From the IMG/VR virus record IMGVR_UViG_3300026493_000002: 64,000 nt of DNA; one strand, 5' to 3'. Positions within the stretch are counted from its first letter, which is position 1; the number at the start of each line of letters is the position of its first letter. This stretch comes from a virus. Its lineage: Duplodnaviria; Caudoviricetes. The notes under the pieces were generated by a model. The model was not told the origin of the DNA, ran no database searches, and saw only the letters and a program-made list of their open reading frames with translations. Made by a program: the position numbers and the translations under genes. Shown here piece after piece: positions 15,414 to 47,889 of the stretch.

Positions 15414-15454
15414 TGTGGAATCCTCGTGTGCAGGAGAATGTGGACTGACGGTTG

Positions 15455-15478: not shown

Positions 15479-15488
15479 TCAAACCCGA
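15479..15488 (+). repeat. TCAAACCCGA box, single copy
   Basis: Exact intergenic copy of the dispersed motif. Confidence 0.6.
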
Positions 15489-31166: not shown

Positions 31167-31916
31167 TTACCAAGCGATAGAAATCTCCTCATCCACACTC
31201 TCAGCCTTGCGCGCCTTGATGACGCCGCGGCTCAACTTGGACACGAACGTGACCAGGTCGTCCTCCTTCTTCACCTTCTTGATCTTGCGACGTTGTGCAA
31301 CCGGTGTGTCGAACAGACCACGTTCGTCGGCGCTATCCAGTCCTGCAATGGAGCGCGCGATCTTCTCGTGGCCCTTCTGGATTTCGGGATCGACCCACGC
31401 CTTGTTGGCATGAATCTCGATACGGATCTGGCGGAACTGGTCCACCGTGTACAGCGAGTTGCTGTTCTTCTCGTTGGGCAAGATGACTGCGGTGCGACCC
31501 GTCTCACTCACGACGCGCACCGTTTCCTTCGTTGCATCCAACACGTAACCCAGAACGAAGTTGCCCAGGTAGTTGCGGCCGGCCCCACCGGCAACGCGGA
31601 TGTAGACTTTCTGCATGAACGAGAACCCAGCCTTGCGGGTCTTACGCTCACCCAGCATGATCGCGGCGAAAATCTGCAGGTCGTTCGCAGACATACGACG
31701 CATCACGGTACCCATGTCCACTACGGACGAAACCCGTGACTCCTGATCCTGCAACAGAGTAAACACGTCAGGCGAATGCTTGCTGCACGCCTTTGAAGAT
31801 GGGATGCGACCAAGCTCACCACACTTGGCCTCAAAGGTCCGTTCCCTTACGAGGAACTGGCAAGAACCACAATTCAGACCTTTTTCTGGCTTCCCGGTTT
31901 CGTTTTGCATTTCCAA
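31167..31916 (-). CDS. Hypothetical protein with N-terminal Cys cluster
   Basis: CGSC...C...C..H; 249 aa. Confidence 0.7.
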   Translation of the reverse strand: MEMQNETGKPEKGLNCGSCQFLVRERTFEAKCGELGRIPSSKACSKHSPDVFTLLQDQESRVSSVVDMGTVMRRMSANDLQIFAAIMLGERKTRKAGFSFMQKVYIRVAGGAGRNYLGNFVLGYVLDATKETVRVVSETGRTAVILPNEKNSNSLYTVDQFRQIRIEIHANKAWVDPEIQKGHEKIARSIAGLDSADERGLFDTPVAQRRKIKKVKKEDDLVTFVSKLSRGVIKARKAESVDEEISIAW

Positions 31917-32343
31917 GACCCCTTTCAGATATAGCTTGCATAATAGAATGGCGGATCGTCTTCTCGATAGATGACAGCCCCAGGTCCGACTGGAGCAGCT
32001 TAATCATTTCGTAGAGACTGGTGTCCACCGACAGATGGATAGGATGTTGCGCCTCGTACCCTTCGGCAATAGGCAGCATCAGAGCCTTTACAAGGATTTG
32101 CAGGTACGGCTCAGCCGTACGCTCCTGATCGACGTTCGCCCAGAACTGACGGACAGGAGTCTTCGAGCCACGTATGCGGGCCACAACCGCAACACCGTTG
32201 GCATGAAGAATGTTGTGACAGCTACTGCATAGCGGAATCTGCAGGCTGTCCTTACCTCCACGTGACTGCGGAACAGTGTGGTGCCAATGCAGCACCGAAA
32301 AGAACTGTTTGCAGATCGTGCAGTTGCCGCTACTGTCACCCAT
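31831..32343 (-). CDS. HNH endonuclease with possible C-terminal ribbon-helix-helix
   Basis: CTIC...HHTVPQSRGG...LCSSCHNILH; IHLSVDTSLYEMIKLL...SIEKTIRHSI. Confidence 0.8.
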   Translation of the reverse strand: MGDSSGNCTICKQFFSVLHWHHTVPQSRGGKDSLQIPLCSSCHNILHANGVAVVARIRGSKTPVRQFWANVDQERTAEPYLQILVKALMLPIAEGYEAQHPIHLSVDTSLYEMIKLLQSDLGLSSIEKTIRHSIMQAISERGLGNAKRNREARKRSELWFLPVPRKGTDL

Positions 32344-33836: not shown

Positions 33837-33843
33837 AAATTAC
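33837..33843 (-). promoter_or_regulatory. Putative late promoter motif GTAATTT
   Basis: GTAATTTTGGTCC, intergenic. Confidence 0.55.
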
Positions 33844-33898: not shown

Positions 33899-34032
33899 GC
33901 AAACCCGAACGTGTGTAGCGTGTACGCGCATCTTCACATAGTATACACGATGATAGTCGTGTGAAGCAATGCTGAAACGTCAATGGAATCAAGCACTTAC
34001 AGATGACGTGAACGACACACGCTCGGGTTTGA
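33899..34032 (-). promoter_or_regulatory. Sigma70-like promoter TTGCTT-N18-TATACT bracketed by inverted CAAACCCGA boxes
   Basis: -10 at 33940-33945, -35 at 33964-33969; boxes at 33899-33908 and 34023-34032 extend into a 15/16 inverted repeat. Confidence 0.65.
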
Positions 34033-34049
34033 AAGATCCTTAAATAGGC

Positions 34050-34086
34050 AAAGAAACAGCGGCCCACGCACAGGGCATGGACCGCT
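34050..34086 (-). terminator. Rho-independent terminator
   Basis: AGCGGTCCATGC-CCTGT-GCGTGGGCCGCT followed by GTTTCTTT. Confidence 0.75.
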
Positions 34087-34098
34087 TGGAATCACCGC

Positions 34099-34108
34099 TC
34101 GGGTTTGA
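34099..34108 (-). repeat. TCAAACCCGA box, single copy
   Basis: Exact copy between a hairpin (34111-34140) and the terminator. Confidence 0.6.
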
Positions 34109-34147
34109 TGCGGAGAGCGCCGAACTAGCGACGCCCTCCGGCTGGGA

Positions 34148-34588
34148 TTAACCGCCCTTGTCGAGCTTCTCCAGCTCGGCGCGAATCTCTTCGGCCGACA
34201 TATCGTCAATGTCGCGCTGCTCGCGGTTGGCCAGCGCTTCCTGCAGGCGACGCTTGGCCAGAGCCTTCTTGTTGGCCTCTTCGCGCTCGGCCTTCTCGGC
34301 CAGGCGGACGTCGATGATGTACTTGACGATGGCGAACTGGAGCTTGGTCAGTTCCAGGGCCTTGTTCGGGCCGCTCGCGTTGACGAACGAGGACGGCTCA
34401 CCGTCGTTCTTGGAGATCAGGCGGTTCAGTTCGACGGCGAGGGTGTCCAGCGTCACCTTCTGCGCGCGCGAACTGGTCAGTTCCAGATCCCACAGGTCCT
34501 CGACGGCAATGCTACCCTGGGCGGTCGGGATACGCAGCTTGATGCGCGATGCCTGGATGAACAGATCGTTGGTGTTGGTTTCGCTCAT
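34148..34588 (-). CDS. Conserved-type phage coiled-coil protein
   Basis: LFIQASRIKLRIPT..G...VEDLWDL motif; 146 aa. Confidence 0.8.
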   Translation of the reverse strand: MSETNTNDLFIQASRIKLRIPTAQGSIAVEDLWDLELTSSRAQKVTLDTLAVELNRLISKNDGEPSSFVNASGPNKALELTKLQFAIVKYIIDVRLAEKAEREEANKKALAKRRLQEALANREQRDIDDMSAEEIRAELEKLDKGG

Positions 34589-34623
34589 GGTGTTGCTCCT
34601 TGTAGACTAGGTGTTGCGATGGA

Positions 34624-36684
34624 TTAGAAGGTGATCTTCAACTGGCGGTTGAACGAACCGCTGACCTTGACGATCACGGAGTCGCGCTTGGTGCTGCTGA
34701 ACCCGAAGCCCGACAGCTGTTCGCCGCCCGCCTCGGTCTTCATCTTGGAACCCAGGACCTCGAACACCTTGCGATGCTCGTTCAGGCGGCCGTCCAGGAA
34801 CTCGTTGAAGAAGCCACGAACCGGCTGCTCGTTGTTGGCACCTTCGACGATGAAGAAGTAGTGCTTGTTGCCGGTCGGCTCTTCGCCATCCCAGTGGTTC
34901 GGGCTGAGCATCAGCAGCTTGACCTTGTGGAACTCGCCGGTCGCCATGCCCCACACGTCGCGCGACAGGGACGAATGCGGCAGCGAGCTACCCCACGTGA
35001 TCTTGCCGTCCTGGACCGTGAACTTGGCGACAGGCACCATGCGATTGGTCGGGATGGCATTCGGGTAGGCGAACTTGCGCACGTCACCCAAGAAGTCGAT
35101 TTCAACCTCGAAGCCAACGTTGTCACGCTCACGCGAGGAGTACTGGTGCACCGCGAGTTCGTACTCACCGTTGACCAGCTTGCTGGCCTTCGGGAAGAAG
35201 ATGTTTTCGACGGGCTCACGCGTGGTGCCAGAGCCGGCATTCATATCGACGTCCAGCTGGCCGCCAGTGGCGTACTGGTGCTTGTTGCCGAAGTAGATGT
35301 GGCCAGCCGGCGACTTGAGGTGCAGGTCCAGATCGTCGTGGTTGTGCCATGCGAGACGGCAGCACAGATCACCGGTCACATTGCCACCAGCCTGCTTGAC
35401 GCGCTCCTTGATGCCGTCAGCCACGTCGCCGTTGTAGGCCCAGCTAAACCCGTTGCTCCAGCGGAACAGCTGGCCAGCAGTGGGATCGGCAGGCGCAACC
35501 AGCGTCATCAGGTTGCCCGTCTTCTCGCCATCGAAGAGGACTTCCATCGTTTCGATGTTCGGCAGCACGTCAGCCAGGAACTTCTCGATGGTGATTTCTT
35601 CGACCTTGTCGGTGCTGCGCTTGGCGACCTTGGTCGGCTTGAGCGCGTCGAAGGCATCCGGGTTGATCTTGCGCTTGGCGCTGCGGTCGGCGAACAGGAT
35701 GTTCGGCAGCTTGAGGTCAGTGACGACAGCCAGACGACGCTCCAGTGCGGACGTCAGGCCGAGCTCGGTCACCTTCTTCTGCGCGTTCTCGATCTGGGCC
35801 TTGGTGATCAGGGACTTCGGACGGCGGTAGTTCGCGGGGGCGACCATCGCCTCGAAGGCCTTGACCGATTCTTCCAGGTCCTTGTCTTCGCTCAGGTTTA
35901 CGATCAGCGAACCGATCGCGGAGTTGCGCAGGCCGGCGACAGCCATCGGCGTCTGCTGCAGGATCGACCACACGTAGTTCACTTCGGCTTCGGGCGGCAG
36001 CTTGTCGAACTTCTCCAGCAGCAGATCGAATGCGACCACGTTGTGCTTGTGTTCTTCGCCGCGATACAGGCTGCCCTGCTCGATCAGTTCCAGCACGGTG
36101 TCAACCGCATCGGACTTGATTTCCCGCAGCGCGCGCAGCAACACCTGATGCTTGGTACGCAGCGCGCCCAGGGTGGAGTCGCGGTCCGCGTGCGAGACTT
36201 GGTAGCGACGGTCGACGTTGACGTGGTAGTGTTCCCAACGCTCGACTGCGCCGTCGATGTAATCGCCGACGGTGACCGAGGCACCGAAACGGGCTTCGGT
36301 CGTCAGGAAAGGCTCGAAGACTGCCAGCGACTTGACGAACTTCGACAGGGCTTCACACACCTGATCGTAGGCATCGTCACCTGTGCGGATATCCCACACG
36401 GACGTCATAGAGCCGTCAGCCTCGATGGCGACAACGCCGCCGATGTTGCGGATCACGTTGCGGCAGCAGGCGCAGTCGTGCTGCGTGCGCTTGCGGAAGA
36501 TCGGATTGGTGCCGGCCGGGAACGCTTCGAGGTACGTGTTCCAGATGCGGTAACGGAAGCTGTCTTCCGTCTGCTGCGCACCCGACACGTCCACGCGGAA
36601 CAACGGCTTGGTCTGCATCGCAGCCCACTGCTTGCTCACGGCCTTCTGGATCTTGGAGAAGTCCAGGTCAACAATCTCGTTCAT
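34624..36684 (-). CDS. Large conserved-type phage protein with YfaP/DUF2135-like domain
   Basis: HDCACCR near the N-terminus; W...DDLDLH...P...LDVDMN...PVENI...G.Y.L.VHQY near the C-terminus. Confidence 0.75.
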   Translation of the reverse strand: MNEIVDLDFSKIQKAVSKQWAAMQTKPLFRVDVSGAQQTEDSFRYRIWNTYLEAFPAGTNPIFRKRTQHDCACCRNVIRNIGGVVAIEADGSMTSVWDIRTGDDAYDQVCEALSKFVKSLAVFEPFLTTEARFGASVTVGDYIDGAVERWEHYHVNVDRRYQVSHADRDSTLGALRTKHQVLLRALREIKSDAVDTVLELIEQGSLYRGEEHKHNVVAFDLLLEKFDKLPPEAEVNYVWSILQQTPMAVAGLRNSAIGSLIVNLSEDKDLEESVKAFEAMVAPANYRRPKSLITKAQIENAQKKVTELGLTSALERRLAVVTDLKLPNILFADRSAKRKINPDAFDALKPTKVAKRSTDKVEEITIEKFLADVLPNIETMEVLFDGEKTGNLMTLVAPADPTAGQLFRWSNGFSWAYNGDVADGIKERVKQAGGNVTGDLCCRLAWHNHDDLDLHLKSPAGHIYFGNKHQYATGGQLDVDMNAGSGTTREPVENIFFPKASKLVNGEYELAVHQYSSRERDNVGFEVEIDFLGDVRKFAYPNAIPTNRMVPVAKFTVQDGKITWGSSLPHSSLSRDVWGMATGEFHKVKLLMLSPNHWDGEEPTGNKHYFFIVEGANNEQPVRGFFNEFLDGRLNEHRKVFEVLGSKMKTEAGGEQLSGFGFSSTKRDSVIVKVSGSFNRQLKITF

Positions 36685-36724
36685 CGAATATCCTCTTTGT
36701 AGACTGAGTGGTACTGCTAGGTGT

Positions 36725-36732
36725 CTTTACAG
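36725..36732 (-). promoter_or_regulatory. Putative middle promoter motif CTGTAAAG
   Basis: About 40 nt upstream of the 686-aa gene; recurring motif. Confidence 0.5.
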
Positions 36733-36978
36733 CTTCTTGCGGCGCGTGCGCTCGGGTTTCTTGGGTTCGGCCCGAGCGCCTGCGATTTCGATTTCCTCTT
36801 TCGAGGCCGGGACCTCCTTGCCGGCACAACGTCCGGCAAGTGGTACCCATCGGTAGTTCATGACTCGCCCGTACCAGGTGTCCGAGTAGATCACCTGGAC
36901 CTTCTTGCAGTGAACACATTGACGACGCCTGTTGCCGAGCAATCGCGCAGGCGGGTGATCTTCCCAGGCGTGTCTCAT
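36727..36978 (-). CDS. Hypothetical small protein
   Basis: 83 aa with CVHC; start abuts the gyrA stop. Confidence 0.6.
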   Translation of the reverse strand: MRHAWEDHPPARLLGNRRRQCVHCKKVQVIYSDTWYGRVMNYRWVPLAGRCAGKEVPASKEEIEIAGARAEPKKPERTRRKKL

Positions 36979-36982
36979 GTGG

Positions 36983-38524
36983 TCAGTCCTTGAAGAATGG
37001 GCGGAAGTCGTCCAGCTGTTTGATCAGGTAGCCCATCGGCTTCTTCATGCGCTTCTCCAAGCCGCTCTTGTTCTTCTCAACCTTCTTGCGATCGGCCAAG
37101 AGGTCGTTGCGGCTCATGTTGCGCAGGCTGATGATCGGGCGGCCGAGGACATACTTCGCGTCCTCAACTTCGACCTTGGCCTTCTTGGCGTAAACCCGAT
37201 AGACCTCGTCGTTGGTCTTGAGCTTCTTGTCCTTGAGGATCTTCATGATGAAGTCGATCAAGTCCACTGCCTGAATCAGCAGCGAGAGGCGGTGAATCTC
37301 CTTCTCGTCCTGCTTGATCCAGTAGGCGCAGGCCTTCTTCTCCAACGACACACGCCACTTCACCCACAGCGTGAGGACCTTGGGTAGGGTCATCGCCTTC
37401 ATCTTGGCGGCGGCCTGGCCCGTCTCGTCCTTGTAACGGCGGGTGAAGTTCAGCACGTAGCTTTCACGTGCGGTCATGATCGCCTTGCACTTCTCGATCA
37501 GGCGCTGCAGGCGGTTGTCAGCCTGCTTCTTGAACACCACGACCATCTTGCCGTAACGGTCCTTGGTGTCCGAGTCGTCCATCACGGTCTGCACGCCGTC
37601 GAAGGCCGCGATCTTCTCCAGAGCCTTGAGCATACTGGAGTAGGCGAACGTGGTGAACGTCAGCGTGCGCTTCTTCTCGTCGTAGTGCGACTCGGAGTGC
37701 AGTTCAACACGGCCACGCTTGGTCGAGAACAGAGCCTTGCGGTGTTCGTCGTTCTTGCCCGTCTCGCGTCCGCCGTAGGTACCGACAACCCGAAGCGTCT
37801 TCGCCAGCAGCTTGGGCGTGAGCTCCTCACCGTTGTATGCCGCCTCGAGGACCTTCAACACGGTTTTGCCGTCGAAGGATGGGATGTTCGCAGTCGCACC
37901 AGGCGCGATGCCGAAGCGGCCGTTGAGGAACAGCAGCGGGATCAGCGCAGGCAGCGTCAGCGGCTCGACGTCCTTGGAGTCGTAGTTCGGCACCATCTCC
38001 ATGACCGGCAGATAGAACTTGTCGAACAGCACGGCATCCGCAAACTTGGACAAGCGAGCTTCGGTGTATCGCATTGCTGCGTAGCCAGGCTCGGACAACG
38101 AACCCCAGTTGCCTTCACCGTCGACCAACGCATGGCAGGTGTTGTTGACCTTGCCTTCGTTGTTCGCCATGCCGACCATGGCGCCGTAGATCGCGCTGTC
38201 ACCGTGCGGGTGGAAGCGGCCCATGGCGTCACCGACGATACGCGCAGCCTTCATGTGAGGCTTGTTGCTGTGCGTGCCGAGTTCGTGCGCGGCCCAGAGG
38301 ATGCGACGATTCACCGGGTTCATGCCGTCACGGTAATCCGGGATGGCACGATCTTCCAGCACTGCGTTGCCGTATCGTTCGTAGGAGGAGACGCTGAAAT
38401 CCTCCAGCGACTGCTCGATGACGGCAACCGCGATCTTGGCCGGCGGGCCCGAACTGACCTCGCCCTTCTTGCCGCGCTTCACTCGGGGCTTCTTGTCTTC
38501 TTTGGTTTTCTTTGCCATCGTCAT
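36983..38524 (-). CDS. gyrA: Type IIA topoisomerase subunit A (GyrA/ParC-like), no C-terminal pinwheel domain
   Basis: IPDYRDGMNPVNRRIL, HPHGDSAIY, AAMRYTEARL (catalytic Tyr). Confidence 0.95.
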   Translation of the reverse strand: MTMAKKTKEDKKPRVKRGKKGEVSSGPPAKIAVAVIEQSLEDFSVSSYERYGNAVLEDRAIPDYRDGMNPVNRRILWAAHELGTHSNKPHMKAARIVGDAMGRFHPHGDSAIYGAMVGMANNEGKVNNTCHALVDGEGNWGSLSEPGYAAMRYTEARLSKFADAVLFDKFYLPVMEMVPNYDSKDVEPLTLPALIPLLFLNGRFGIAPGATANIPSFDGKTVLKVLEAAYNGEELTPKLLAKTLRVVGTYGGRETGKNDEHRKALFSTKRGRVELHSESHYDEKKRTLTFTTFAYSSMLKALEKIAAFDGVQTVMDDSDTKDRYGKMVVVFKKQADNRLQRLIEKCKAIMTARESYVLNFTRRYKDETGQAAAKMKAMTLPKVLTLWVKWRVSLEKKACAYWIKQDEKEIHRLSLLIQAVDLIDFIMKILKDKKLKTNDEVYRVYAKKAKVEVEDAKYVLGRPIISLRNMSRNDLLADRKKVEKNKSGLEKRMKKPMGYLIKQLDDFRPFFKD

Positions 38525-40461
38525 TCAACCCCGAACAGAACTTTGCGGAAGGCGGGACTCGGTCCGAGCAACTGCTCGAATGCCTTGCGACCCTTTGCCT
38601 CCGCGTCGATGATGCGAATGAGCGTGCGCTCGTTCGGACGCATGGCGATACCGAGGTCGTCGGGATTGATTTCACCCCAACCCTTCAAGTACGTCATGTC
38701 CACCTTGGCGCCGCCCACCTTCTTGGTGACTTCTTCCTGCGTCATGCCGAAGTACACCACGCCCTTGTGCTTGGCCTTGAACAGCGGGCTGCGCACTGCG
38801 TACACACGACCATCGCGGAGCAGCTGCGGCATGAACCGGAACAGGATCGCGAGGATCAAGGTGTCGATGTGGCTGCCGTCAACGTCTGCGTCGGTCATCA
38901 GGATGATGCGACCGTACGCGGGTTCAGCGTTGGCCTTCTTGCCGCTCAGGTCCACGCCGAGTGCAGCCAGCAGGCCCACGACTTCGGCATTCGCATTGAC
39001 CTTGTCCTTCTTGGCAGCAAGCACGTTCAGCGGCTTACCGCGAAGAGGGTACACAGCCTGGAACGACTTGTCGCGCTTCTGCTTGGCGCCGCCGCCTGCC
39101 GAGTCACCCTCGACGATCAGCAACTCGCGGTCCTCGATAGGCACGCGCCCGACAATGCCAGCCAACTTGGTGATCAGGCCCTTGCCAGCAGCCTTGACGT
39201 TCTTCACCAGCTTCTTGTCCTTGAGGAAGTCGGACGTCTTGGAGCGCAGCAGGGTGGCGCGTGCGATCAGGTCGCGAGCCATACCCTTGTTCTTGGTCCA
39301 GAACTCGGTGAACTGCTCACTGAACTGCGGGTACGCAACTTCGTACACGCGGTTGTCGACCAGCTTGTCCTTCGGCTGGTTGTTGAACATGGGTGCGGCG
39401 ATCTTGTAGTTCACCAGACCCATCAGACCGTCACACAGGTCCTTCTGGGTGAATGCCGGGCCGTCAGACTTCTTGCCCTTGCGCTTCGACTTGCCCTTGC
39501 CGCGAGCCTTGGCCTTCTGGGCCTTGGCTTTCTCCTTCTCCTTGACGCCAGAGAAGTCGACCAGGGTATCGTACAGCGCCTTCTGGAGTGCGCGCGTATG
39601 CTCACCACCGTCCTTGTTGAACAGGCCGTTGGTGTACGCCTGCACGAGGTCACTGCCTTCGGCGTCAGTAAACCCGATCGCCACGTCGGCTTCCTTCGTG
39701 CTGAACACGATGGGCTTGCCGGTGATCGTTGCCTTCACCTGCTCGATTTCGTAGGCGAGGAACTCCTGCGGGCCGGCAGTCTTGAAGGTCTTGGTCTTGC
39801 CGTCGGCCTTGGTGAACTTCACCTCGAGGCCCTTGACCAAGTACGAGGTCAGTCGGCACCATTCCAGCGCGCGCCTCGTACCCATCTTGGCGCCCTTCTG
39901 GAAGAGCGTCATATCGGGTTCGAGCATCACGACCGTGCCCTTCTTGGGCTTGATGCCGTGCGGCATCTTCGGTGCTTTGGTCTTGTACGGCGCCTTTGCC
40001 AGCTTGGCGTCCTTGTACTCGATTGCCCACCACTGACCCTTGCGGAACGTCCACACGGTGAAGCGCTTGGCCATGGCGTTCGTCGCCTTGATGCCAATGC
40101 CGTGCGTGCCTCGGCTGATCTGGTCGCTATCGAAGTTGGAGCCGCCGTGGGTCAAACCCGTGACGACGTACAGCTTGGACAGCTTCTCGCTCTTGCCGTG
40201 TTCGTTCTCGAAGGTGTCGTGATCGACCGGGATACCTTCACCGGCGTCAAGCACCCAGTAGATGCCCGGCTTGGAATCTTCGATCAGGTGTACCAGCTTG
40301 TTCTCACCACGCAGTGCGCCGTCAACGCAGTTATCTGCGGGTTCGCGCCAGCAGGTCCAGAGACCATCACTGTCGGGTGCGCCGATATATGGAGTCGGCT
40401 TTTTCCTGATGCCGAGAAGTCCCGCGAATCGCTGGATCTTCGGTGCAGTCTTTTTGGCCAT
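38521..40461 (-). CDS. gyrB: Type IIA topoisomerase subunit B (GyrB/ParE-like)
   Basis: GHKL motifs EPADNCVD, DAGEGIP, GTHGIG; TOPRIM motifs EGDSA, PLRGK, TDADVDG. Confidence 0.95.
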   Translation of the reverse strand: MAKKTAPKIQRFAGLLGIRKKPTPYIGAPDSDGLWTCWREPADNCVDGALRGENKLVHLIEDSKPGIYWVLDAGEGIPVDHDTFENEHGKSEKLSKLYVVTGLTHGGSNFDSDQISRGTHGIGIKATNAMAKRFTVWTFRKGQWWAIEYKDAKLAKAPYKTKAPKMPHGIKPKKGTVVMLEPDMTLFQKGAKMGTRRALEWCRLTSYLVKGLEVKFTKADGKTKTFKTAGPQEFLAYEIEQVKATITGKPIVFSTKEADVAIGFTDAEGSDLVQAYTNGLFNKDGGEHTRALQKALYDTLVDFSGVKEKEKAKAQKAKARGKGKSKRKGKKSDGPAFTQKDLCDGLMGLVNYKIAAPMFNNQPKDKLVDNRVYEVAYPQFSEQFTEFWTKNKGMARDLIARATLLRSKTSDFLKDKKLVKNVKAAGKGLITKLAGIVGRVPIEDRELLIVEGDSAGGGAKQKRDKSFQAVYPLRGKPLNVLAAKKDKVNANAEVVGLLAALGVDLSGKKANAEPAYGRIILMTDADVDGSHIDTLILAILFRFMPQLLRDGRVYAVRSPLFKAKHKGVVYFGMTQEEVTKKVGGAKVDMTYLKGWGEINPDDLGIAMRPNERTLIRIIDAEAKGRKAFEQLLGPSPAFRKVLFGVE

Positions 40462-40489
40462 GATATGTCACTGTGATAGGAGAGTGCCC

Positions 40490-40610
40490 TGCCCACATGG
40501 GGCTGGTCAAACCCGATGTGGGCAAGACACGCGGACAGGATGTATAACGCAATGAACGCTCCGCAACACACTGGAAGCGGAGCGTTCATCATGCCGAGGC
40601 TAAGCTCGGC
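40490..40610. other. Three tandem intergenic hairpins, the first containing a TCAAACCCGA box
   Basis: Stems at 40490-40524, 40552-40589 (13 bp perfect) and 40593-40610. Confidence 0.7.
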
Positions 40611-40626
40611 GGCCGGCATTCAGCGA

Positions 40627-41001
40627 TCAGTCGGCGTCGACCGGGCGCTTCTTCTTCTTGCCGTCCTTGGACTTCTTGCCCTTCTTCTTGAGCTTGTCCT
40701 TGTTCTTCGACTTCTTGGCCTTCGGCGCTTCGTCTTCGTCGCCGTCGTCTTCGTCGGCGGCCGGCTTCGACTTCTTGGCCTTGGCGGTCTTCTCGGTCTT
40801 CGACTTCTTGCCAGCCTTCTTGCTGGACTTGGCCGGCTTGGCAGCCTTCTTGGCGGTCTTCTTCGCGGCCGGGGCGGCGTCGGCGCCTTCCAGGGCAGCG
40901 GTCAGAGCTTCATTGGCGGCATCGACGGTTTCGACGGCCTTGGCCAGGGCCTTCTGGGCAGCTTCGACGGCCTTGGCGGCCTTCTTGAGTTCACGGGACA
41001 T
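40627..41001 (-). CDS. Histone H1-like Lys/Ala-rich protein
   Basis: AKKTAKKAAKPAK-type repeats after a short coiled coil; start MSRELK. Confidence 0.75.
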   Translation of the reverse strand: MSRELKKAAKAVEAAQKALAKAVETVDAANEALTAALEGADAAPAAKKTAKKAAKPAKSSKKAGKKSKTEKTAKAKKSKPAADEDDGDEDEAPKAKKSKNKDKLKKKGKKSKDGKKKKRPVDAD

Positions 41002-41070
41002 TTCTAATACCTCGATAACAGGGTTGTTGGATATGGGTGTGTGTAACATGGTGGAGCGGTGTTGCAACGA

Positions 41071-41094
41071 ACAGGGCTCGGGTTTGAGCCCTGT
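41071..41094 (-). other. 9-bp hairpin whose loop is the AAACCC core of the dispersed box
   Basis: ACAGGGCTC-AAACCC-GAGCCCTGT. Confidence 0.75.
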
Positions 41095-41120
41095 CCGATC
41101 AGGCGCCGGCTGGCAGACGA

Positions 41121-42257
41121 TTACTCGTCGTCGCCGTCGTCTTCATCTTCGTCTTCGTCTTCCCAGTCGCCGTCTTCGTCCTCGTCTTCGTCGTCCGAAT
41201 CGGAGTCATCGTCGTCGCCGTCGTCCTCGTCTTCATCTTCGTCGTCCGAGTCGTCCTCGTCTTCGTCGTCGGAGTCCGAATCATCTTCGTCCTCGTCATC
41301 CGAATCGGAGTCATCATCCTCGTCCTCGTCTTCGTCGTCCGAGTCGTCGTCGGAGTCCGAATCATCTTCGTCCTCGTCCTCATCCTCGTCTTCGTCGCCG
41401 TCTTCGTCGGAATCTTCGTCCTCGTCTTCGTCGTCCGAGTCGTCTTCATCCTCGTCTTCGTCGCCGTCGTCTTCGTCCTCGTCATCCGAGTCGTCTTCGT
41501 CGGCGGCCGCAGCCTTCTTGGCCTTGCCGGCCTTGCCCTTCGGAGCCGGCTCGGCGCCGTCGTCGTCCTGGGCCACGATCTGCACTTCGACGCCGGCGGC
41601 GCGGGTGTTGATGGTGATGACTTCGCCGTCGGTGGTGGTCACGGTGATCAGGCCGTTCTCGCCCTCGACCACGGTGCCCTCGAAGGCGCTGGCGGCGATG
41701 GTGCGCTTGACGACCACGGTCGCTTCTTCGCCGGCTTCACCCTTGACGACCAGCACGCGGCTGCGAGCGAAGCGCGACACCACGAACTTGTTGCTGCGTT
41801 CCTTCTTGTGGCGCAGGCTGATGAACTCGCCATCGGCCGACGACAGCAGGGTGCCCTGGATTTCGACGACGGTATCGGCCAGCAGCGTCACGTTGAACAG
41901 CAGCTGGTCGGCGCCGACGCTGCCCTTCTTGCCCTTGCGTGCCTTCGGAGCCGGAGCAGCCTTGGCGCCACGCTTGGTCTTGGTCACCTTCTCGGCCTTG
42001 GCAGCAGCGCGCTTCTGCGCACGGGTCTGCTTCGGAGCCTTCTCGGCCTTGGCGCCGCGCTTGGCCTTCGGAGCAGCCTTCGCCTTGGTCGCCTTCGCAG
42101 CCTTCGCAGCCTTGCCGCGCGGTGCCTTGGTCTTGGCAGCAGCCTTGGCGCCGCGTGCGGTCTTCTTCTCGGTGGCCTTCTTGGTGGTGCGGGCGGTCTT
42201 CTTCTTGTCCGCAGCCTTGGTCTTCTTGGCGGTGGTCTTCTTGGTCGAACGTGCCAT
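41121..42257 (-). CDS. Tripartite protein: H1-like basic arm, beta-rich core, about 125-residue Asp/Glu tail
   Basis: Composition directly visible in the 378-aa translation. Confidence 0.8.
   Translation of the reverse strand: MARSTKKTTAKKTKAADKKKTARTTKKATEKKTARGAKAAAKTKAPRGKAAKAAKATKAKAAPKAKRGAKAEKAPKQTRAQKRAAAKAEKVTKTKRGAKAAPAPKARKGKKGSVGADQLLFNVTLLADTVVEIQGTLLSSADGEFISLRHKKERSNKFVVSRFARSRVLVVKGEAGEEATVVVKRTIAASAFEGTVVEGENGLITVTTTDGEVITINTRAAGVEVQIVAQDDDGAEPAPKGKAGKAKKAAAADEDDSDDEDEDDGDEDEDEDDSDDEDEDEDSDEDGDEDEDEDEDEDDSDSDDDSDDEDEDEDDDSDSDDEDEDDSDSDDEDEDDSDDEDEDEDDGDDDDSDSDDEDEDEDGDWEDEDEDEDDGDDE
41124..41502 (-). repeat. Degenerate coding tandem repeat (poly-D/E)
   Basis: Reiterated GACGAAGAC/GAGGAC/TCGGAC units encoding DEDEDDSD. 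Confidence 0.85.
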
Positions 42258-42331
42258 GGTGTAGCGTCTCCGTTGTGAGATTTGTTGCGAAATTGGGTTC
42301 AGGGTATTGCAGTGTTGCTGTTACACGGAAT

Positions 42332-42339
42332 CTTTACAG
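42332..42339 (-). promoter_or_regulatory. Putative middle promoter motif CTGTAAAG
   Basis: Intergenic; here inside the palindrome GGAATCT-GTAA-AGATTCC. Confidence 0.5.
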
Positions 42340-42355
42340 ATTCCAGATTGGGCGA

Positions 42356-43420
42356 TTATTCCTCGCCCTCTTCCTCGCCCGAATCTTCTTCCGGCAGGAT
42401 GGACATGAGGAACATATCGCCGTGCTTCGGCAGCAGCAGTTCCTCGACGCCCGACTTGGACGGCGGCACCCAGTCGGCGCTGCTCTTCTGGGCAGCCTGC
42501 ACCAGGTCGTGGCGGTCGTACAGGTCGAACGACTCGCGCTCGTTCAGGTTGTTCAGCAGGTCAACGAACTTGCCGTCGGCCAGGCTGTTGCCACGCAGGG
42601 CGACACCGAAGATGACCAGCGGCGCGTAACCCGCGTCTTCCTCGAACTTGGCAGCGACCTGCTCCAGGTAGTTGATGACCTGGCCGACAGCGTTGTCCAG
42701 TTCGCCAGCGGCGTACAGGCTACCAGCGTTGACCGTCAGGTTGACGAACACGTTGCTGGTGATGCCGGCGTCGGCGTCAGCCGCCATGTTCAGCGCGGCC
42801 GAATCGGTGTTGGCCCAGGAGGTAACGCGGATCAGATCGGAGAACAGCAGCGGCTGGCTCGGGTTCGGATCTTCCGAGTCGGCCAGCAGGAACGCGTGGT
42901 CAGCCGGCAGGCCGAGCGCGGTCTGCACGCGGTTCTGGAGTTCGACAGCCAGCTTGCGCATCAGGGCGACCTGATCGCTACGCTTGCCCAGGTACACGAC
43001 GTTCTGGCCTTCCAGTTCGGCGGCGATGTTGAACACCGACGACATGGCGTTGCGCAGCAGACCGCGTGCAGCTTCCGGATCCTTGGCCTTGACCTTCTTG
43101 TTCACCGGACGGAACGGGTTGAACAGGTTGGAGTTCTCGTGGCCTTCGATTTCGACCTTCTCCAGGATCGACTTGAACGTTGCGTTGTTCTCCTCGAAAC
43201 GCTCGAAGTTGGTCAGGTCGAGGGTGATGATGACGCCGACCGACAGCTTGTTCAGGCTGACCTGGGCGTTCTCGGTCTTGGTCAGGACCTTGGCATCAGC
43301 CGGCTTGGCTTCGGTGACTTCGGCGCCCGGCTGCGTTTCGATACGCACCTTCTCGGGGGAGGCTGCGACCTGCTGCATCTTCACCTTCTCGGCGGTGGGG
43401 ATGGGATTCTCGTTCGACAT
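42356..43420 (-). CDS. Hypothetical acidic protein
   Basis: 354 aa, strong codon bias, AGGAG RBS. Confidence 0.8.
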   Translation of the reverse strand: MSNENPIPTAEKVKMQQVAASPEKVRIETQPGAEVTEAKPADAKVLTKTENAQVSLNKLSVGVIITLDLTNFERFEENNATFKSILEKVEIEGHENSNLFNPFRPVNKKVKAKDPEAARGLLRNAMSSVFNIAAELEGQNVVYLGKRSDQVALMRKLAVELQNRVQTALGLPADHAFLLADSEDPNPSQPLLFSDLIRVTSWANTDSAALNMAADADAGITSNVFVNLTVNAGSLYAAGELDNAVGQVINYLEQVAAKFEEDAGYAPLVIFGVALRGNSLADGKFVDLLNNLNERESFDLYDRHDLVQAAQKSSADWVPPSKSGVEELLLPKHGDMFLMSILPEEDSGEEEGEE

Positions 43421-43489
43421 GGTTGTAACTCCTGCGTCAGTGACTTTGTTGTCGTGTGAACTGCGTTGTTGTGTGGATGAAGCGGTGAA

Positions 43490-43867
43490 TCAGATGCCGA
43501 CGTTCAGGCCTTCGGCTTCGGCGTCGTCGAGCATCTTGGTCAGGCGGCGGACAAACTCGCGACCCGCATCGAGCGGCAGACCGCCGACAGCGACGTGCAG
43601 CAGATGCTCGGTGTCGTTGCTGCTGGCTTCGACGCTGGCCTGACCAACGTTGTTGCCTGCCCGGAGCGAACAGCGCAGGCGGTCGAAGTCGAGGGGAAAC
43701 ACGCCGTCGGGACGGATCGCTGCGGATTCGCGGGTCGAGACGTTGATGACCGGCGCACGCTTCACGACTGCACGCTTGGTGACGACCTTCGATGCTGCGG
43801 TGTTGCTCTTCGCGGGACGACCACGCTTGGCGGCGTTCGGCTTCTGCTGATTCTTCGGTGCGGGCAT
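43490..43867 (-). CDS. Small basic protein with AT-hook
   Basis: KRGRPAK at residues 14-20. Confidence 0.7.
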   Translation of the reverse strand: MPAPKNQQKPNAAKRGRPAKSNTAASKVVTKRAVVKRAPVINVSTRESAAIRPDGVFPLDFDRLRCSLRAGNNVGQASVEASSNDTEHLLHVAVGGLPLDAGREFVRRLTKMLDDAEAEGLNVGI

Positions 43868-43910
43868 AGCGATAACCTCTTGGATAGTGGGTACTGCCTA
43901 GTGATTGATA

Positions 43911-43917
43911 TTTACAG
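43911..43917 (-). promoter_or_regulatory. Putative middle promoter motif CTGTAAA(T)
   Basis: Intergenic, 44 nt upstream of the start. Confidence 0.5.
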
Positions 43918-43932
43918 TTCCTTGCGGACTGC

Positions 43933-44289
43933 CTATTCTTCGGCCGTTTCGAGACCCGCTTCCGATGCAGAGGCAATTAGCATCCGCAACTTCTTGGCGA
44001 CCTTCTGGCCTTTTTCGAGTGGAATCGTGGTTCCCTTCTTGGTGGGCTTCCACTCGCCGCTCGCCTTGTCCTTGTAGTAGTGGCGGATATCCACGTAATG
44101 CTTTCCGCCATACTCCTGCACGGACAGGACGACACGGCCGCTGTCGGACTTCTTGACAAAGGTGGTCAATTCCGAAAGATCGAGTTTGGGCTTTTCGGCC
44201 TTTTTCGATTTCGTCGGCTTGTCACCCTTCGACTTCTTGTTTACAGCTTTTTCCACTTCGTCCTTACTGCGGGTTTTTCCCGATTTCAT
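43933..44289 (-). CDS. PC4/p15 (YdbC-like) single-stranded DNA-binding protein
   Basis: LSVQEYGGKHYVDIRHYY...EWKPTKKG PC4 signature; start MKSGKT. Confidence 0.9.
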   Translation of the reverse strand: MKSGKTRSKDEVEKAVNKKSKGDKPTKSKKAEKPKLDLSELTTFVKKSDSGRVVLSVQEYGGKHYVDIRHYYKDKASGEWKPTKKGTTIPLEKGQKVAKKLRMLIASASEAGLETAEE

Positions 44290-44642
44290 GCCGGCACCTT
44301 TTTGTGATCGCGCAGGATGTTGATGTGCGATTTGCACCAGGCGATGACGGTCGACGGGAACAGCGTGTAGCGGTTGTCCCGCAGTACCTGCTGAACTGCA
44401 CGATCATCAACGCGCCATACAACGGACAGGTTTTCTTCCATCGCGATGGCTTCGCACTCCTCGATCAGGCACTGAGCGGTGTCAGCGTCGATCCCAGCCA
44501 CGTCGTAAACCCGAAGCTGGTTGGTGTGGACAGACAGACTCACCGCGAAGGTGACGCCGGCGTCGTTGTACTTGGCGACGATCAGCGGTGCACCAAGCTG
44601 CTCCTTGATGGCAGCCATGATCTGCTTGGAGAGTCCGCTCAT
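44286..44642 (-). CDS. Hypothetical protein
   Basis: 118 aa, translationally coupled on both sides. Confidence 0.7.
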   Translation of the reverse strand: MSGLSKQIMAAIKEQLGAPLIVAKYNDAGVTFAVSLSVHTNQLRVYDVAGIDADTAQCLIEECEAIAMEENLSVVWRVDDRAVQQVLRDNRYTLFPSTVIAWCKSHINILRDHKKVPA

Positions 44643-45133
44643 GCCAGACCAACCCGCGACAGACCCATGAAGCTGTCCAGCAGCGCGGCATGTTCCTCGC
44701 GCATCTGCTCCACCGTCTTGTAGAAGCTCGGCGGATTCGAGAACTCCAGCTTGGAGAACCCGACACGCGGCAGGAACTGCTCGATGTTGCGATCCTGAAC
44801 TTCATGCACCATCAGGGCGTGACCGTACAGCGTGGCGCAACGCTGGGCCTGCTGGATCAAGGCACGCATCAAACCACGACGGCGGTTCTTCGGGTTCACG
44901 AACAGACCAGTGATGTAGACCGTCGGGGTTTCCTTGCGATCTTCCAGCGTGCGCTTACCGACACGAATGTCGACCGTCCCTTCGGCGGTTTCAACACGGC
45001 AGTTGATCGACAGGCCGGCACGGCGCTGGCTGTTTTCGATCAGGTCCTGCAACTGGACAGTGAACTGCGGGAGAAGCAAGCACTGCGCGAGACTTTCCAT
45101 AGGCTGGACGAGGCGTACATTGGGCTGAGACAT
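44639..45133 (-). CDS. GNAT-family acetyltransferase
   Basis: YITGLFVNPKNRRRGLMRALI acetyl-CoA motif A; FLPRVGF; start MSQPNV. Confidence 0.75.
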   Translation of the reverse strand: MSQPNVRLVQPMESLAQCLLLPQFTVQLQDLIENSQRRAGLSINCRVETAEGTVDIRVGKRTLEDRKETPTVYITGLFVNPKNRRRGLMRALIQQAQRCATLYGHALMVHEVQDRNIEQFLPRVGFSKLEFSNPPSFYKTVEQMREEHAALLDSFMGLSRVGLA

Positions 45134-45160
45134 GATATGGGAACTCCGATATAGAAGAAA

Positions 45161-45169
45161 CGGGTTTGA
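45161..45169 (-). repeat. TCAAACCCG box, single copy
   Basis: Intergenic copy 27 nt upstream of the GNAT start. Confidence 0.55.
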
Positions 45170-45178
45170 CAACTGGGA

Positions 45179-46153
45179 TCAGGACGCCTTGAGCTTGCGG
45201 AATTCCTTGACGTCCTTGAAATGCTCGTGGAAGAACTCGCCCTGCGATTCGGCGAGAGTGAACTGGGTGAATTCCTTGACCGACACGTCCTCGTAGAGGT
45301 ACTTGCCGCCGTTCTTGAACTCCAGCTTGAGGCGCTGGCTCTGCGGGTTGTACCATGCGGTCAGGATCGTGGACGACTCGATGTTCAGACGCCAGATCGG
45401 CTTGGTGCGGGCCGACGAGGCTGCTGCCTTCTTCTGCTTGGTCGAGGTCAGCGCGTCAGCCTTCTTCTTGGATTTGGGCGCACGCTTGATGCTCTTGGGA
45501 CGCAGGCGCAGGTTGGCTTTCTTGTCACGGCCCACACGGTTCTTTTCGGGCAGGCCTTCAACCGCATCGGCAGCATCGCGGTCCATGATCTTGCCGCTCG
45601 ACTTGTTCTTCTTGGCGTCCTTCTTTTCAAACCCGTCTTCGAGGGCGACCGGAATGGACAACGTGCGAGCAACGCTGCGCACCGCCAAGCGGTTGGACTT
45701 TTCATCACCGCTGGTCAGAATGACCCGTGCGCCGTCAGTCTTGGCATCTTCGCCGAGTTGCTTGGCCAGCTTCTTCGCGTCCTTGGCAGCGGGACACAGG
45801 ACGACAAACTTGGCTGCCTTCTTCTTCTTGGTCGCCTTGGCAGGCGCCTTCTTGCCCTTCGACTTCTTCGCAGCCTTCGGTTCGACGCCGACGGTCTTCA
45901 CGCTATCGTCGTCAGCGCGGGGACGACCGCGGCCGGCGACTACGTTGCCAGTCACGTCTTCCGCCGTGGCTGCGGTGTCCAGCACCTTGATCTTGGATGC
46001 GGGAATGGTGATCGTGCGGCCCGTGCGCGTGAAGTCCAGCGACGGCTTCTTGTTCAGGCGTTCTTCAACTGCCTTGGCATCCTGTGCCGAATCGAAGCGG
46101 AAGCGGATGGTTTCTTCTTTGGTGTTGCGGGCCTTGCGGACGTTGTTTGCCAT
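45179..46153 (-). CDS. Basic protein with AT-hook and C-terminal KTSC domain
   Basis: GRGRPR; SSTI...WYNP....L.LEFKNGGKYLY.DV....F.....AESQGEFFH KTSC signature. Confidence 0.85.
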   Translation of the reverse strand: MANNVRKARNTKEETIRFRFDSAQDAKAVEERLNKKPSLDFTRTGRTITIPASKIKVLDTAATAEDVTGNVVAGRGRPRADDDSVKTVGVEPKAAKKSKGKKAPAKATKKKKAAKFVVLCPAAKDAKKLAKQLGEDAKTDGARVILTSGDEKSNRLAVRSVARTLSIPVALEDGFEKKDAKKNKSSGKIMDRDAADAVEGLPEKNRVGRDKKANLRLRPKSIKRAPKSKKKADALTSTKQKKAAASSARTKPIWRLNIESSTILTAWYNPQSQRLKLEFKNGGKYLYEDVSVKEFTQFTLAESQGEFFHEHFKDVKEFRKLKAS

Positions 46154-46224
46154 GACGGGAATTCCTCTTGGGATGTTGTCGTTTCGATGTAGGAAAATCG
46201 CGCTCAGTTGTTACGCCTAGATTT

Positions 46225-46343
46225 TCAAACCCGAAGCGACAAGCGCGAATGTCGCTCTCTAGGGAAGTATATCACGCCCGTGAAAGACGTGTCAAGGGAT
46301 CGCACCCTAAGCGGCGCAGTGGGGTTACGCCGATCGGGTTTGA
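46225..46343 (-). promoter_or_regulatory. Sigma70 promoter TTGACA-N18-TATACT (TGn extended -10) bracketed by inverted TCAAACCCGA boxes
   Basis: -10 at 46266-46271, -35 at 46290-46295; boxes at 46225-46234 and 46334-46343. Confidence 0.85.
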
Positions 46344-46348
46344 AGTTC

Positions 46349-47029
46349 TCAGGAGTTCCGAAGCAGGCTATTGCCCGCGTAGGTGCCCTCCATCATGGAG
46401 AACGAAATGCGCAGATACTCAGGCATCCGCGTCATGTAGTTTTTGTCGAAGGAGAAGATCACGTCGTTCACCACGTCCCACCACAGGTCCACACCGTGCG
46501 GCAGTTCGCCGTCACCAAACGTTTTCTTGGTGAACGCAGTCGGGCGAGAGGTCTTGCGCTGGTTGTCGCGGAGTTCGATCAACCAGTTGACGTATTGGTC
46601 CAGTTCCTGGCCGCGCAGCCTCGTGTACAGGCGAAGCGCGTAGCTGCGACCGTCCTTGGTGAGGAACAGGTTCTCAGCCTTGAACGTCTCGTATGCGAAA
46701 GAGGTCAGGTGCATACGGCGCAGCGATTCCGGCAGCGCATCGAAGGAGAAGCCCGGACCGTTCATGTGGTCGAGGCTGATCGAATCGAAGAAGCGCGCGT
46801 CACGGTACTTGCCGAGCGGCCGGCGAATGCTGGCGCGCTGAATGTGGGACGGCGGCATCGGATGCGGAATGATGACCTGCGAATCTTCGGGAATGGCTAG
46901 AGGTACTTCGCGCTGCACGATGCCGTAGCCGGGCGCGTCGTTGTCCATTCCGACGAAGGTCCAACCGTTGTGGGTGTAGCTGTCATACTGCTCCAGAGGA
47001 ACAGACAGCTTATAGGTGCGAATAGCCAT
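46349..47029 (-). CDS. Conserved-type phage hypothetical protein
   Basis: 226 aa; LDHM....FSFDALPESLRR and LWWDVVND blocks. Confidence 0.75.
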   Translation of the reverse strand: MAIRTYKLSVPLEQYDSYTHNGWTFVGMDNDAPGYGIVQREVPLAIPEDSQVIIPHPMPPSHIQRASIRRPLGKYRDARFFDSISLDHMNGPGFSFDALPESLRRMHLTSFAYETFKAENLFLTKDGRSYALRLYTRLRGQELDQYVNWLIELRDNQRKTSRPTAFTKKTFGDGELPHGVDLWWDVVNDVIFSFDKNYMTRMPEYLRISFSMMEGTYAGNSLLRNS

Positions 47030-47200
47030 GGGAGTTTACTCTCGATATGTAGGCGATTGACTGGTCGGTAGAAGCAACCAGCGTCCTTGTTGATAGTGAC
47101 TGGGCATTTGCTGTGGCACGTGTATTGAAAACAGCGACCCCAATCACGGTGATATGCTTCGCGCAACGTGCCTCCGTTTCCGGTATGCGCTAGCCAACCT

Positions 47201-47278
47201 CTACTCCGTGATTAGGGCAACACGATGATTCGACTGTAGCAGCACGATTAGTTTCGCGCTGTAGTGTTCAGGCATCAT
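47201..47278 (-). CDS. Possible 25-aa peptide
   Basis: AGGAGA RBS before ATGATG; fills an otherwise empty gap. Confidence 0.3.
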   Translation of the reverse strand: MMPEHYSAKLIVLLQSNHRVALITE

Positions 47279-47309
47279 GCGTCTCCTAACGCTATGGTTC
47301 GATTTCGCC

Positions 47310-47681
47310 CTAGTCTGCGTAGTCATCACCGCTAGTGCGGTAATGCTCTTCCAACTCCGCTTCGAGGGCTTCGTTCTGTTTCTTGCGGCACGGCTCACAG
47401 ACCTCGTACACAGGTCCAGCCATGCCTTCTTCGGGATCACGGACCGAACGCAACTCGACGTTCTCCGTTTTGCACCAGTCGCAACGCCCAACGAGTTCCT
47501 CACGTTTCGGGATGTGGCGTGCGCAGAAGTCCAGGTACTCGGCACCGAACGAATCGGTTTCGCCTTGCACGCGCACTGTTGCGTCACTCAGACAACCGTG
47601 ATGATCGCACGCGACGGTAGCTGGCGGTACGCTCCGTGCGCCCGGCAGAGTAGAGACTGGTCCAGATGATACGTCAGCCAT
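47310..47681 (-). CDS. Zinc-binding hypothetical protein
   Basis: CDHH...C..H and CDWC...VCEPC; start MADVSS after AGGAG. Confidence 0.75.
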   Translation of the reverse strand: MADVSSGPVSTLPGARSVPPATVACDHHGCLSDATVRVQGETDSFGAEYLDFCARHIPKREELVGRCDWCKTENVELRSVRDPEEGMAGPVYEVCEPCRKKQNEALEAELEEHYRTSGDDYAD

Positions 47682-47722
47682 TTCGCATAGCTCCTTTGCT
47701 GTGGGCAGAATCCGACAATTTT

Positions 47723-47830
47723 TCAAACCCGAATCAGTGTGTTCGATATAGAGTCGGGCAAGGACAGTATAACACAGTCGAATGAAAATGTCAAATATAG
47801 CCCGCTGCAGGTATATGCGTACGGGTTTGA
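47723..47830 (-). promoter_or_regulatory. Sigma70 promoter TTGACA-N17-TATACT (TGn extended -10) bracketed by inverted TCAAACCCG boxes
   Basis: -10 at 47766-47771, -35 at 47789-47794; boxes at 47723-47732 and 47822-47830. Confidence 0.85.
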
Positions 47831-47851: not shown

Positions 47852-47889
47852 AAAAGAAAAAGGGACCATGCCAGTAGCACAGTCCCCTT
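47852..47889 (-). terminator. Rho-independent terminator
   Basis: AGGGGACTGTGC-TACTG-GCATGGTCCCTT followed by TTTCTTTT. Confidence 0.85.

Follow-up and report, generated by a model that had tools for sequence, protein, structure and literature searches.

Inverted ten-base boxes at predicted early promoters in a clade of uncultured soil jumbo phages

Results

Three boxed promoters in the window

The DNA analyzed here is a stretch of 64,000 nucleotides (nt), referred to as the window, of the IMG/VR virus record IMGVR_UViG_3300026493_000002. Its source is an uncultured soil jumbo phage, and the element under study is a ten-base sequence word, or box, which flanks predicted promoters in inverted copies; at least eight relatives of the phage share such boxed promoters. 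The window has a G+C content of 59%, and the minus strand is the coding strand for nearly all genes, which include those for phage-type topoisomerase II subunits and for a DnaB-like helicase; many of the encoded proteins have no family. Promoters and transcription starts are, here and in the following, those predicted from the sequence.

The features considered are listed in Table 1. A first-pass annotation had described three sigma70-type promoters (P1, P2 and P3) between inverted boxes, about 100-125 nt apart; all the coordinates and spacings hold, and the measured distances between the boxes are 124, 109 and 98 nt. The downstream box, B, reads TCGGGTTTG[A/C] in the sense direction, and the upstream box, A, is the inverted word, TCAAACCCG[A/T]. 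An extended -10 (TGn) is also found at P2 and P3. These three are the only good-quality intergenic sigma70-type promoters on the sense strand of the window; both of those matching the consensus at 10 or more of 12 positions have B, and P1 has it too. The interiors of the three boxed promoters, called cassettes below, are unrelated, except for the hexamers and the boxes. At P1 and P3 a terminator is located 30 nt or less upstream of A, and the same is true in most relatives.

Table 1. Positions of boxes, promoters and other features in the window; sequences of boxes are given in the sense direction.
Feature	Position	Strand	Description
Single B-type box	15479-15488	-	4 nt past stop codon, 17 nt before CATGCTAATTT
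173-aa winged-helix protein	29437-29958	-	P1 operon; overlaps start of DnaB-like helicase gene
170-aa HNH protein	31831-32343	-	best-conserved P1 operon protein, 65-91% identity across relatives
TAATTT-type block, P1 leader	33837-33843	-	GTAATTT, 56 nt past B
Box B of P1	33899-33909	-	TTCGGGTTTGC, 31 nt past -10
P1 promoter	33940-33969	-	-35 TTGCTT 33964-33969, 18-nt spacer, -10 TATACT 33940-33945; -10 to B 31, A to -35 53, box to box 124 nt
IHF-consensus-like block	33987-33999	+	AATCAAGCACTTA, between box A and -35 of P1
Box A of P1	34023-34032	-	TCAAACCCGA; at orthologous promoter in 7 of 8 relatives (8 of 9 with window)
Intrinsic terminator upstream of P1 cassette	34058-34086	-	12-pair stem, then GTTTCTTTGC; kept in L065
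Extra A-type box	34099-34108	-	TCAAACCCGA; upstream of P1 terminator
Single B-type box	40507-40516	-	in front of topoisomerase genes; no consensus promoter upstream
Single A-type box	41073-41094	-	in loop of terminator-like hairpin CAGGGCTC-AAACCC-GAGCCCTG
Single A-type box	45160-45169	-	begins 10 nt past stop codon of gene 45179-46153
Box B of P2	46225-46234	-	TCGGGTTTGA, 31 nt past -10
P2 promoter	46266-46295	-	-35 TTGACA 46290-46295, 18-nt spacer, -10 TATACT 46266-46271; TGA-TATACT, 11/12 matches; -10 to B 31, A to -35 38, box to box 109 nt
Box A of P2	46334-46343	-	TCAAACCCGA; begins 6 nt past stop codon of gene 46349-47029
123-aa Cys/His-rich protein	47310-47681	-	first gene behind P3; CDWC...CEPC; no Pfam family
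Box B of P3	47723-47732	-	TCGGGTTTGA, 33 nt past -10
P3 promoter	47766-47794	-	-35 TTGACA 47789-47794, 17-nt spacer, -10 TATACT 47766-47771; TGT-TATACT, 11/12 matches; -10 to B 33, A to -35 27, box to box 98 nt
Box A of P3	47821-47830	-	TCAAACCCGT
Intrinsic terminator upstream of P3 cassette	47859-47889	-	14-pair stem, then TTCTTTTCCG

Relatives sharing the boxed promoters

Eight relatives, L065, L067, L068, L070, L072, L073 and L075 among them, were collected from metagenome contigs by using homologues (37-80% identity) of the protein of 478 amino acids (aa) encoded behind P1. In all eight, the order of the P1 operon is kept (478-aa protein, HNH protein, three unknown proteins, helicase), and a strong predicted promoter with a box is found upstream of it; the P1 cassette is thereby syntenic down to 37% protein identity.

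Further loci were obtained by a pattern scan of metagenome contigs, most matches of which are due to chance. One of them, L116, is about 81% identical in DNA to the 39.3-49.6 kb portion of the window and has orthologues of both P2 and P3. Three others (L109, L151 and L152) are located on one 236-kb contig, the cassette of L151 having the same sequence as that of L074, and a further cassette type, with the spacer TCTAACAG..TGTGTTATACT, was found on four contigs (L107, L125, L160 and L175). The longest contig carrying window proteins measures 233 kb. In GenBank, DNA and protein searches point to phiCbK-like phages as the nearest ones, with 52% identity in one conserved protein; phage PaBG reaches 29% identity, over one third of one protein.

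A scan of IMG/VR with the pattern TATACT-N30-34-TCGGGTTTGA produced 46 single matches, which were read as chance. The sole contig with two copies of the pattern (L041; IMGVR_UViG_3300013093_000017, 229 kb) is unrelated, AT-rich DNA with duplicated short peptide genes; at 10650-10870 it carries two tandem copies of a short peptide gene, the product of which we take to resemble the PqqA precursor of pyrroloquinoline quinone. A stricter cassette pattern found no match in IMG/VR and 10 scattered ones in species genomes, from diverse metagenome-assembled genomes with one or two copies of the word each, also read as chance. No enrichment of the word was seen in relatives collected through a conserved 686-aa protein (at most 49% identity).

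Metatranscriptome runs contain the phage as contigs of 17-55 kb with even depth, which are probably DNA; since the contigs are long and of even depth, these RNA-labelled runs are uninformative on transcription starts and expression. A depth peak at 41268-41444 was rejected as a small RNA: it falls within a long low-complexity repeat coding for Asp/Glu (41121-42257, minus strand), where contig breaks and spurious joints occur in all four runs.

Twenty cassettes across the clade

All together, 20 cassettes were assembled from the window, the eight relatives found by protein homology and the further metagenome contigs. B, with the consensus TTCRGGTTTG, is present in all of them. The C of its CRGG lies 30-36 nt past the -10 in 18, and 43 and 51 nt past it in the other two; for the loci found by protein homology alone, which are free from search-pattern bias, the same interval holds for 10 of 12 cassettes. 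Every sense-strand promoter of the protein-found relatives with 10 or more of 12 consensus matches has B. Each strong host-type promoter of the clade carries the word about 32 bases past its -10.

A, with the consensus CAAACCYGA, is present in 17 of the 20 cassettes and is inverted relative to B in every case; it is absent from L073, L109 and L152. The distance between its end and the -35 ranges between 26 and 58 nt, and A is usually found just past the T-run of a terminator. The two boxes are 96-133 bp apart in the 17 cassettes. Both are asymmetric words, the logo of which has no internal dyad, and all the 20 cassettes point to their genes.

The P1 orthologues have TTGAC[A/G], followed after 17-18 nt by TATA[A/C]T or TACAAT. 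In the leaders of all nine, window included, a block [C/G/A]TAATTT, of the type CATG(C/A)TAATTT, is located 31-57 nt past B. The P2 cassette is present in the window and in L116, and absent from L070.

Two further features of these leaders were observed. A hairpin AGCGACA...TGTCGCT stands just before B in the P2 leader (46235-46262, minus strand) and in L116 (3195-3225), with the stem kept and a variable loop. An inverted pair, TGTGT (-18 to -14) and ACACA (about +18 to +22), surrounds the -10 and the start at P3 of both the window and L116, and in L160, L175 and L125; it may belong to a longer B consensus (ACAC.GATTCGGGTTTG), or just reflect the TG motif of the extended -10.

Distribution of the word

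The word CAAACCCG occurs 15 times in the window, versus 2.31 expected and a maximum of 7 in 100 shuffles; in L065 it is found 8 times, versus 0.5 expected. Over the window and its eight relatives (nine phages, 173 kb), the 19.3 kb of intergenic DNA contain 37 copies, or 1.92 per kb, 11 times the 0.17 per kb of coding sequence; the reversed control word totals 5 copies. These counts, together with the contrast in density, exclude chance. Over the window and the relatives, the copies are concentrated between genes and tied to strong promoters.

Of the 15 copies in the window, 11 are intergenic, including the five single ones that had been listed as such (15479, 34099, 40507, 41078 and 45161); the coding copies, put at two in that annotation, are four (31051, 32472, 40153 and 45628). 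Several coding copies correspond to the same conserved codons in orthologous genes.

When the cassette copies are subtracted from the intergenic totals of the nine phages, about 11 single copies of A type and 3 of B type are left. The hairpin with the box in its loop at 41078 is found also in L065 and L116, with a different, compensated stem; in this spacer the box is present in six relatives at varying positions, and in B orientation in L068. The box at 40507 is kept in L065 and L116, and an A-type box lies at the corresponding place in L072. The extra box at 34099 is kept in L065 within different flanks, and is absent from more distant relatives. Near the single B box at 15479, a TAATTT-type block is located 17 nt past it (15450-15460, minus strand). 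A (T)GCAACAC block, which may represent another promoter class, was noticed at 41055-41066 (minus strand), upstream of the 140-aa gene preceding the topoisomerase genes; it is kept in L065, L070, L072 and L073.

Phage PaBG shares a syntenic replication operon with the P1 region. Its P1 orthologue (L193 2185-2255, upstream of PaBG_00115) reads TTGACT...TACAAT, with an inverted 12-mer, CTATTGTAGACG in the spacer and CGTCTGCAATAG about 18 nt past the -10; the pair flanks the -10 closely, and differs from the boxes both in word and in geometry. PaBG has 19 copies of CAAACCYG versus 8 of the control, hardly an enrichment. At L193 2440-2450, the place syntenic to the TAATTT block of the P1 leader, TAGATAATTT is found. 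Promoter cassettes are not described in the PaBG genome paper.

Conservation and spacing of the boxes

When the window is compared with L116, the DNA between A and -35 and the spacer between the P2 hexamers have diverged almost completely, whereas A, the hexamers and the leader, B included, show few or no differences. A of P2 forms an island of identity within a diverged stretch, and A of P3 is kept although both flanks have diverged. Against L065, all three boxes of the P1 region are kept within differing immediate flanks. The retention of boxes amid diverged DNA in these two comparisons indicates that both boxes are under purifying selection in their own right.

At P1, A and B are 124-126 nt apart in six of the eight orthologues having both boxes, over a diverged intervening sequence. 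A block TAAGTGCTTGATT, which in reverse complement agrees with the IHF consensus WATCAANNNNTTR, is found between A and -35 in seven of the nine P1 regions, the window being one of the nine; L072 has a degenerate form of it, and L073 lacks it. For the other cassettes the distance classes are 96-98, 107-109 and 117 nt; with a period of 10.5 bp they differ by roughly a helical turn (R=0.84, p about 0.04), a weak hint of helical phasing.

Candidate factors

Three proteins of the window are candidates for a factor acting on the boxes: the 173-aa winged-helix, the 170-aa HNH and the 123-aa Cys-rich protein. The first is conserved in all relatives; the core of its model has a predicted local distance difference test score (pLDDT) of about 90, and its fold comes closest to those of the regulators MarR, PadR and SarX, at weak E-values of 0.02-0.1. 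The C-terminal half of the HNH protein (residues 106-158) shows a weak sequence match to histone H2B (best E 1.4e-4, 8grq_D); its structure model, with a pLDDT of 46, is unusable. The N-terminal half of the 123-aa protein is conserved in L116. No repressor or integrase was seen among the scanned proteins of the window (64 kb of genome). A 134-aa protein (43933-44337, minus strand), kept in L116 and L151, contains a PC4 (transcriptional coactivator p15) single-stranded DNA-binding domain (Pfam E 8e-14).

Discussion

Boxes as possible DNA sites

The architecture is real, extends over the clade and is kept by purifying selection, so that a regulatory role of the boxes at early promoters is well founded. 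The best-supported reading of this role, which we hold tentatively, is that the boxes are asymmetric double-stranded DNA sites for one putative sequence-specific factor, by which early promoters would be bracketed for shut-off or insulation. The factor is most likely encoded by the phages, because the word is kept across genomes with a G+C content of 50-59%.

Evidence on balance favours recognition of the boxes in double-stranded DNA. The site has a size of about 10 bp, with the core CAAACCYGA, and B lies just past the downstream edge of the RNA polymerase footprint, at about +25 to +35. A, located upstream of the promoter and mostly past a terminator T-run, should be contained neither in the transcript of its own promoter nor in the terminated one coming from upstream, so that its placement is explained by a role as DNA. 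The changes in orientation and position of single copies between orthologous spacers are also in favour of DNA operators, as is the steady A-B distance at P1, with a conserved IHF-like block inside it.

According to this DNA-site reading, the factor, when present, would occupy both sites, alone or bridged, possibly assisted at P1 by a bend due to host IHF. Once bound, it would hold back or insulate the early promoter, possibly by blocking escape or elongation at +25, and possibly by stopping polymerases which leak through the upstream terminator. Promoters located downstream of B would stay free, and the single copies past genes and terminators could act as extra barriers.

Several observations weigh against such a scheme. 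The proteins considered for the factor are candidates, none of them linked to the boxes by any test, and the 173-aa protein could equally be a replication protein. A looping repressor would not usually bind an asymmetric site in which about ten positions are nearly invariant, and bracketing is not obligatory, as three cassettes lack A. Helical phasing does not extend to the P1 class, and was calculated on few, partly orthologous classes. The orientation of B is constant relative to transcription, whole leaders are conserved between close relatives, and a B fixed within such leaders would also suit a signal that is read while the RNA is made or afterwards. The loop of a terminator hairpin, the stem of which co-varies, contains a box in three phages, which looks like an RNA display. 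Finally, the promoters and starts are predicted ones. The first-pass annotation had proposed paired operators for a phage regulator looping or wrapping early promoters; what stands of it are real, clade-wide, selected sites outside the polymerase footprint, whereas the asymmetry of the sites and the three cassettes without A weigh against it.

Among known systems, the loop formed by GalR and HU at the E. coli gal operon, to which those of lac O1-O3, NagC and DeoR are related, is comparable: two sites flank the promoter about 100-125 bp apart, outside the polymerase footprint, as do the boxes at 96-133 bp, and a site for an architectural protein lies between the operators, as the IHF-like block does at P1. 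In contrast, gal-type operators are palindromic and bound by dimers, and occur as one pair per operon; the boxes are 10-bp words without symmetry, placed as mirror images at every strong promoter and also present as single copies. The stoperators of cluster A mycobacteriophages, bound by a monomeric repressor of the L5 gp71 type (PMC9283540, PMC6550527), resemble the boxes in being short, asymmetric and present in many intergenic copies, with an orientation linked to transcription; some are located downstream of promoters and act on elongation. Stoperators, however, have a single orientation, whereas B follows promoters and A precedes promoters and follows genes; they also belong to a temperate immunity system, and the window of this jumbo phage shows no sign of lysogeny.

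A possible signal in the leader

A rather less probable explanation, although one to be taken seriously, is that B is a cis signal, acting on the transcription complex or as a word of the early mRNA leader. It could be a pause or loading site read in the non-template strand, ops- or Q-like, or a mark for a nuclease or a binding protein; the RegB nuclease of T4, for example, uses GGAG. The inverted copies would then serve transcription in the opposite direction, or mask B by pairing. The invariance of B in all the 20 cassettes, its single orientation, its distance of 30-36 nt from the -10 in 18 of them and its presence without A in three are all expected from such a signal, and leaders, from +1 to beyond B, are much better conserved between close relatives than the DNA upstream. 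Moreover, B stands between the early promoter and the TAATTT block, so that it would be carried by early transcripts only. The consensus of elemental pauses is G(-10)...T(-1)G(+1), which many B sites fit when judged by eye.

RNA readings are little supported. The region has no match in Rfam at E up to 1, the nine orthologous P1 leaders have neither a consensus fold nor a conserved hairpin, and B does not match nut or put. In predictions the box is mostly paired, and its partners change: its probability of being unpaired is 0.30, versus 0.47 for the average leader word. Leader elements for antitermination or loading, such as lambda nut, HK022 put and RfaH ops, are likewise short, strictly oriented and located in the promoter-proximal transcribed region of long operons; they share neither sequence nor fold with B, and have no inverted copy upstream. 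A signal in the leader would leave unexplained the selection acting on the untranscribed A, the A-B distance and the IHF-like site at P1, and the flips in orientation, and the distance of 43 and 51 nt in two orthologues does not agree with it. The nascent RNA alternative, already considered in the first-pass annotation as an antitermination-type site, is retained as to the invariance of B and its constant place in the transcribed leader; the part concerning antitermination finds no nut, put or ops match and no conserved fold.

A wider view of the boxes as DNA sites, which we regard as improbable, is that one orientation-coded DNA word makes up a clade-wide boundary system. A phage protein would bind it as a polar barrier, mirror pairs would cage early promoters and shut them at +25, and single copies would back up terminators; polymerases could leave a caged promoter, and not enter it.

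Pairing, recombination and inversion as less likely readings

It is unlikely, to a still greater degree, that A and B function as an RNA pair in read-through transcripts, where arms of 10-17 nt would close a stem, making a processing site (RNase III-like) or masking B, in a manner comparable to the short complementary boxes on the same strand in the c4/ant system of phage P1. The arms are inverted in every case and can be long: the window P1 forms 9 pairs, one G.U and 7 more pairs, L067 and L068 form 13 and L070 14. The variable base is usually concordant within a pair, as with CCTG and CAGG in L067, L068 and L072, and hairpin loops present the box at 41078 and in the orthologous spacers. On the other side, complementarity of the flanks is marginal, true pairs scoring 9.5/24 versus 7.8/24 (standard deviation 2.4) for mismatched ones; the L075 pair is discordant, giving a C.A mismatch in sense RNA; the longer pairing of the window P1 is not kept in L065, the closest relative; and three cassettes have no A. 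Since A stands behind strong terminators, few transcripts should hold both arms. Stems of 10-11 bp are, in addition, short for RNase III.

Very little speaks for cassettes being recombination linkers or mobile promoter modules. Their order of terminator, strong sigma70 promoter and leader is reminiscent of the promoter early stem-loops (PeSLs) of large, virulent T4-type phages, repeated elements in which an intergenic terminator stem-loop is combined with a near-consensus sigma70 early promoter and a leader (PMC2839356, PMC4122927), and the number of cassettes varies between relatives, P2 being shared with L116 and not with L070. PeSLs, however, are conserved over about 100 bp, serve as recombination linkers around ORFans, and are not described with inverted boxes (PMC2839356, PMC4122927), whereas the cassettes have in common only hexamers and two 10-bp boxes, and are syntenic over deep divergence, P1 in eight relatives down to 37% protein identity. 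As for miniature inverted-repeat transposable elements (MITEs), the ends are inverted, but no target-site duplications were seen beside the arms, on reading the flanks by eye, the interiors of the three cassettes are unrelated beyond hexamers and boxes, and the word is merely about 10 bp long.

The idea of promoters flipped by a site-specific recombinase can practically be set aside. Inverted repeats around a promoter, one word at many loci and an IHF-like site in one of them agree with the general layout of fimS and of Bacteroides invertons; all the 20 cassettes, however, face their genes, and a Pfam scan of 20 proteins revealed no recombinase. With almost every gene on the same strand, a promoter that was flipped would have nothing to drive. 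Contigs from four runs span all three cassettes in one orientation with no strand-change joint, a weak argument, as rare variants are lost from contigs. Other readings were dropped by eye for want of a consistent partner element: B as the -35 of a tandem promoter, and the box as a MotA-like -30 element or a sigmaE-type -10. An 8-mer likeness to a 16S rRNA segment was dropped too, as unreliable and no better than chance.

Biological meaning

The first-pass annotation had known of no description of the architecture, and no published one was found in the searchable literature, where searches for the box word returned primers and unrelated sequences only. The timing and shut-off of early genes in jumbo phages depending on the host polymerase are largely unknown. 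Here, a compact, conserved cis-element, which is simple to synthesise, marks every strong early promoter of an uncultured clade, and provides both a handle for finding the regulator and a signature by which early transcription units can be annotated in metagenomic jumbo phages. The cassettes are also a test case for whether a single mechanism, or more than one, underlies the bracketing of promoters by inverted words. Should the sites be polar barriers, or loop anchors made from asymmetric monomer sites, they would represent a new design among repression architectures; a boundary system, if true, would be a general, so far undescribed means of organising and timing early transcription in large virulent phages.

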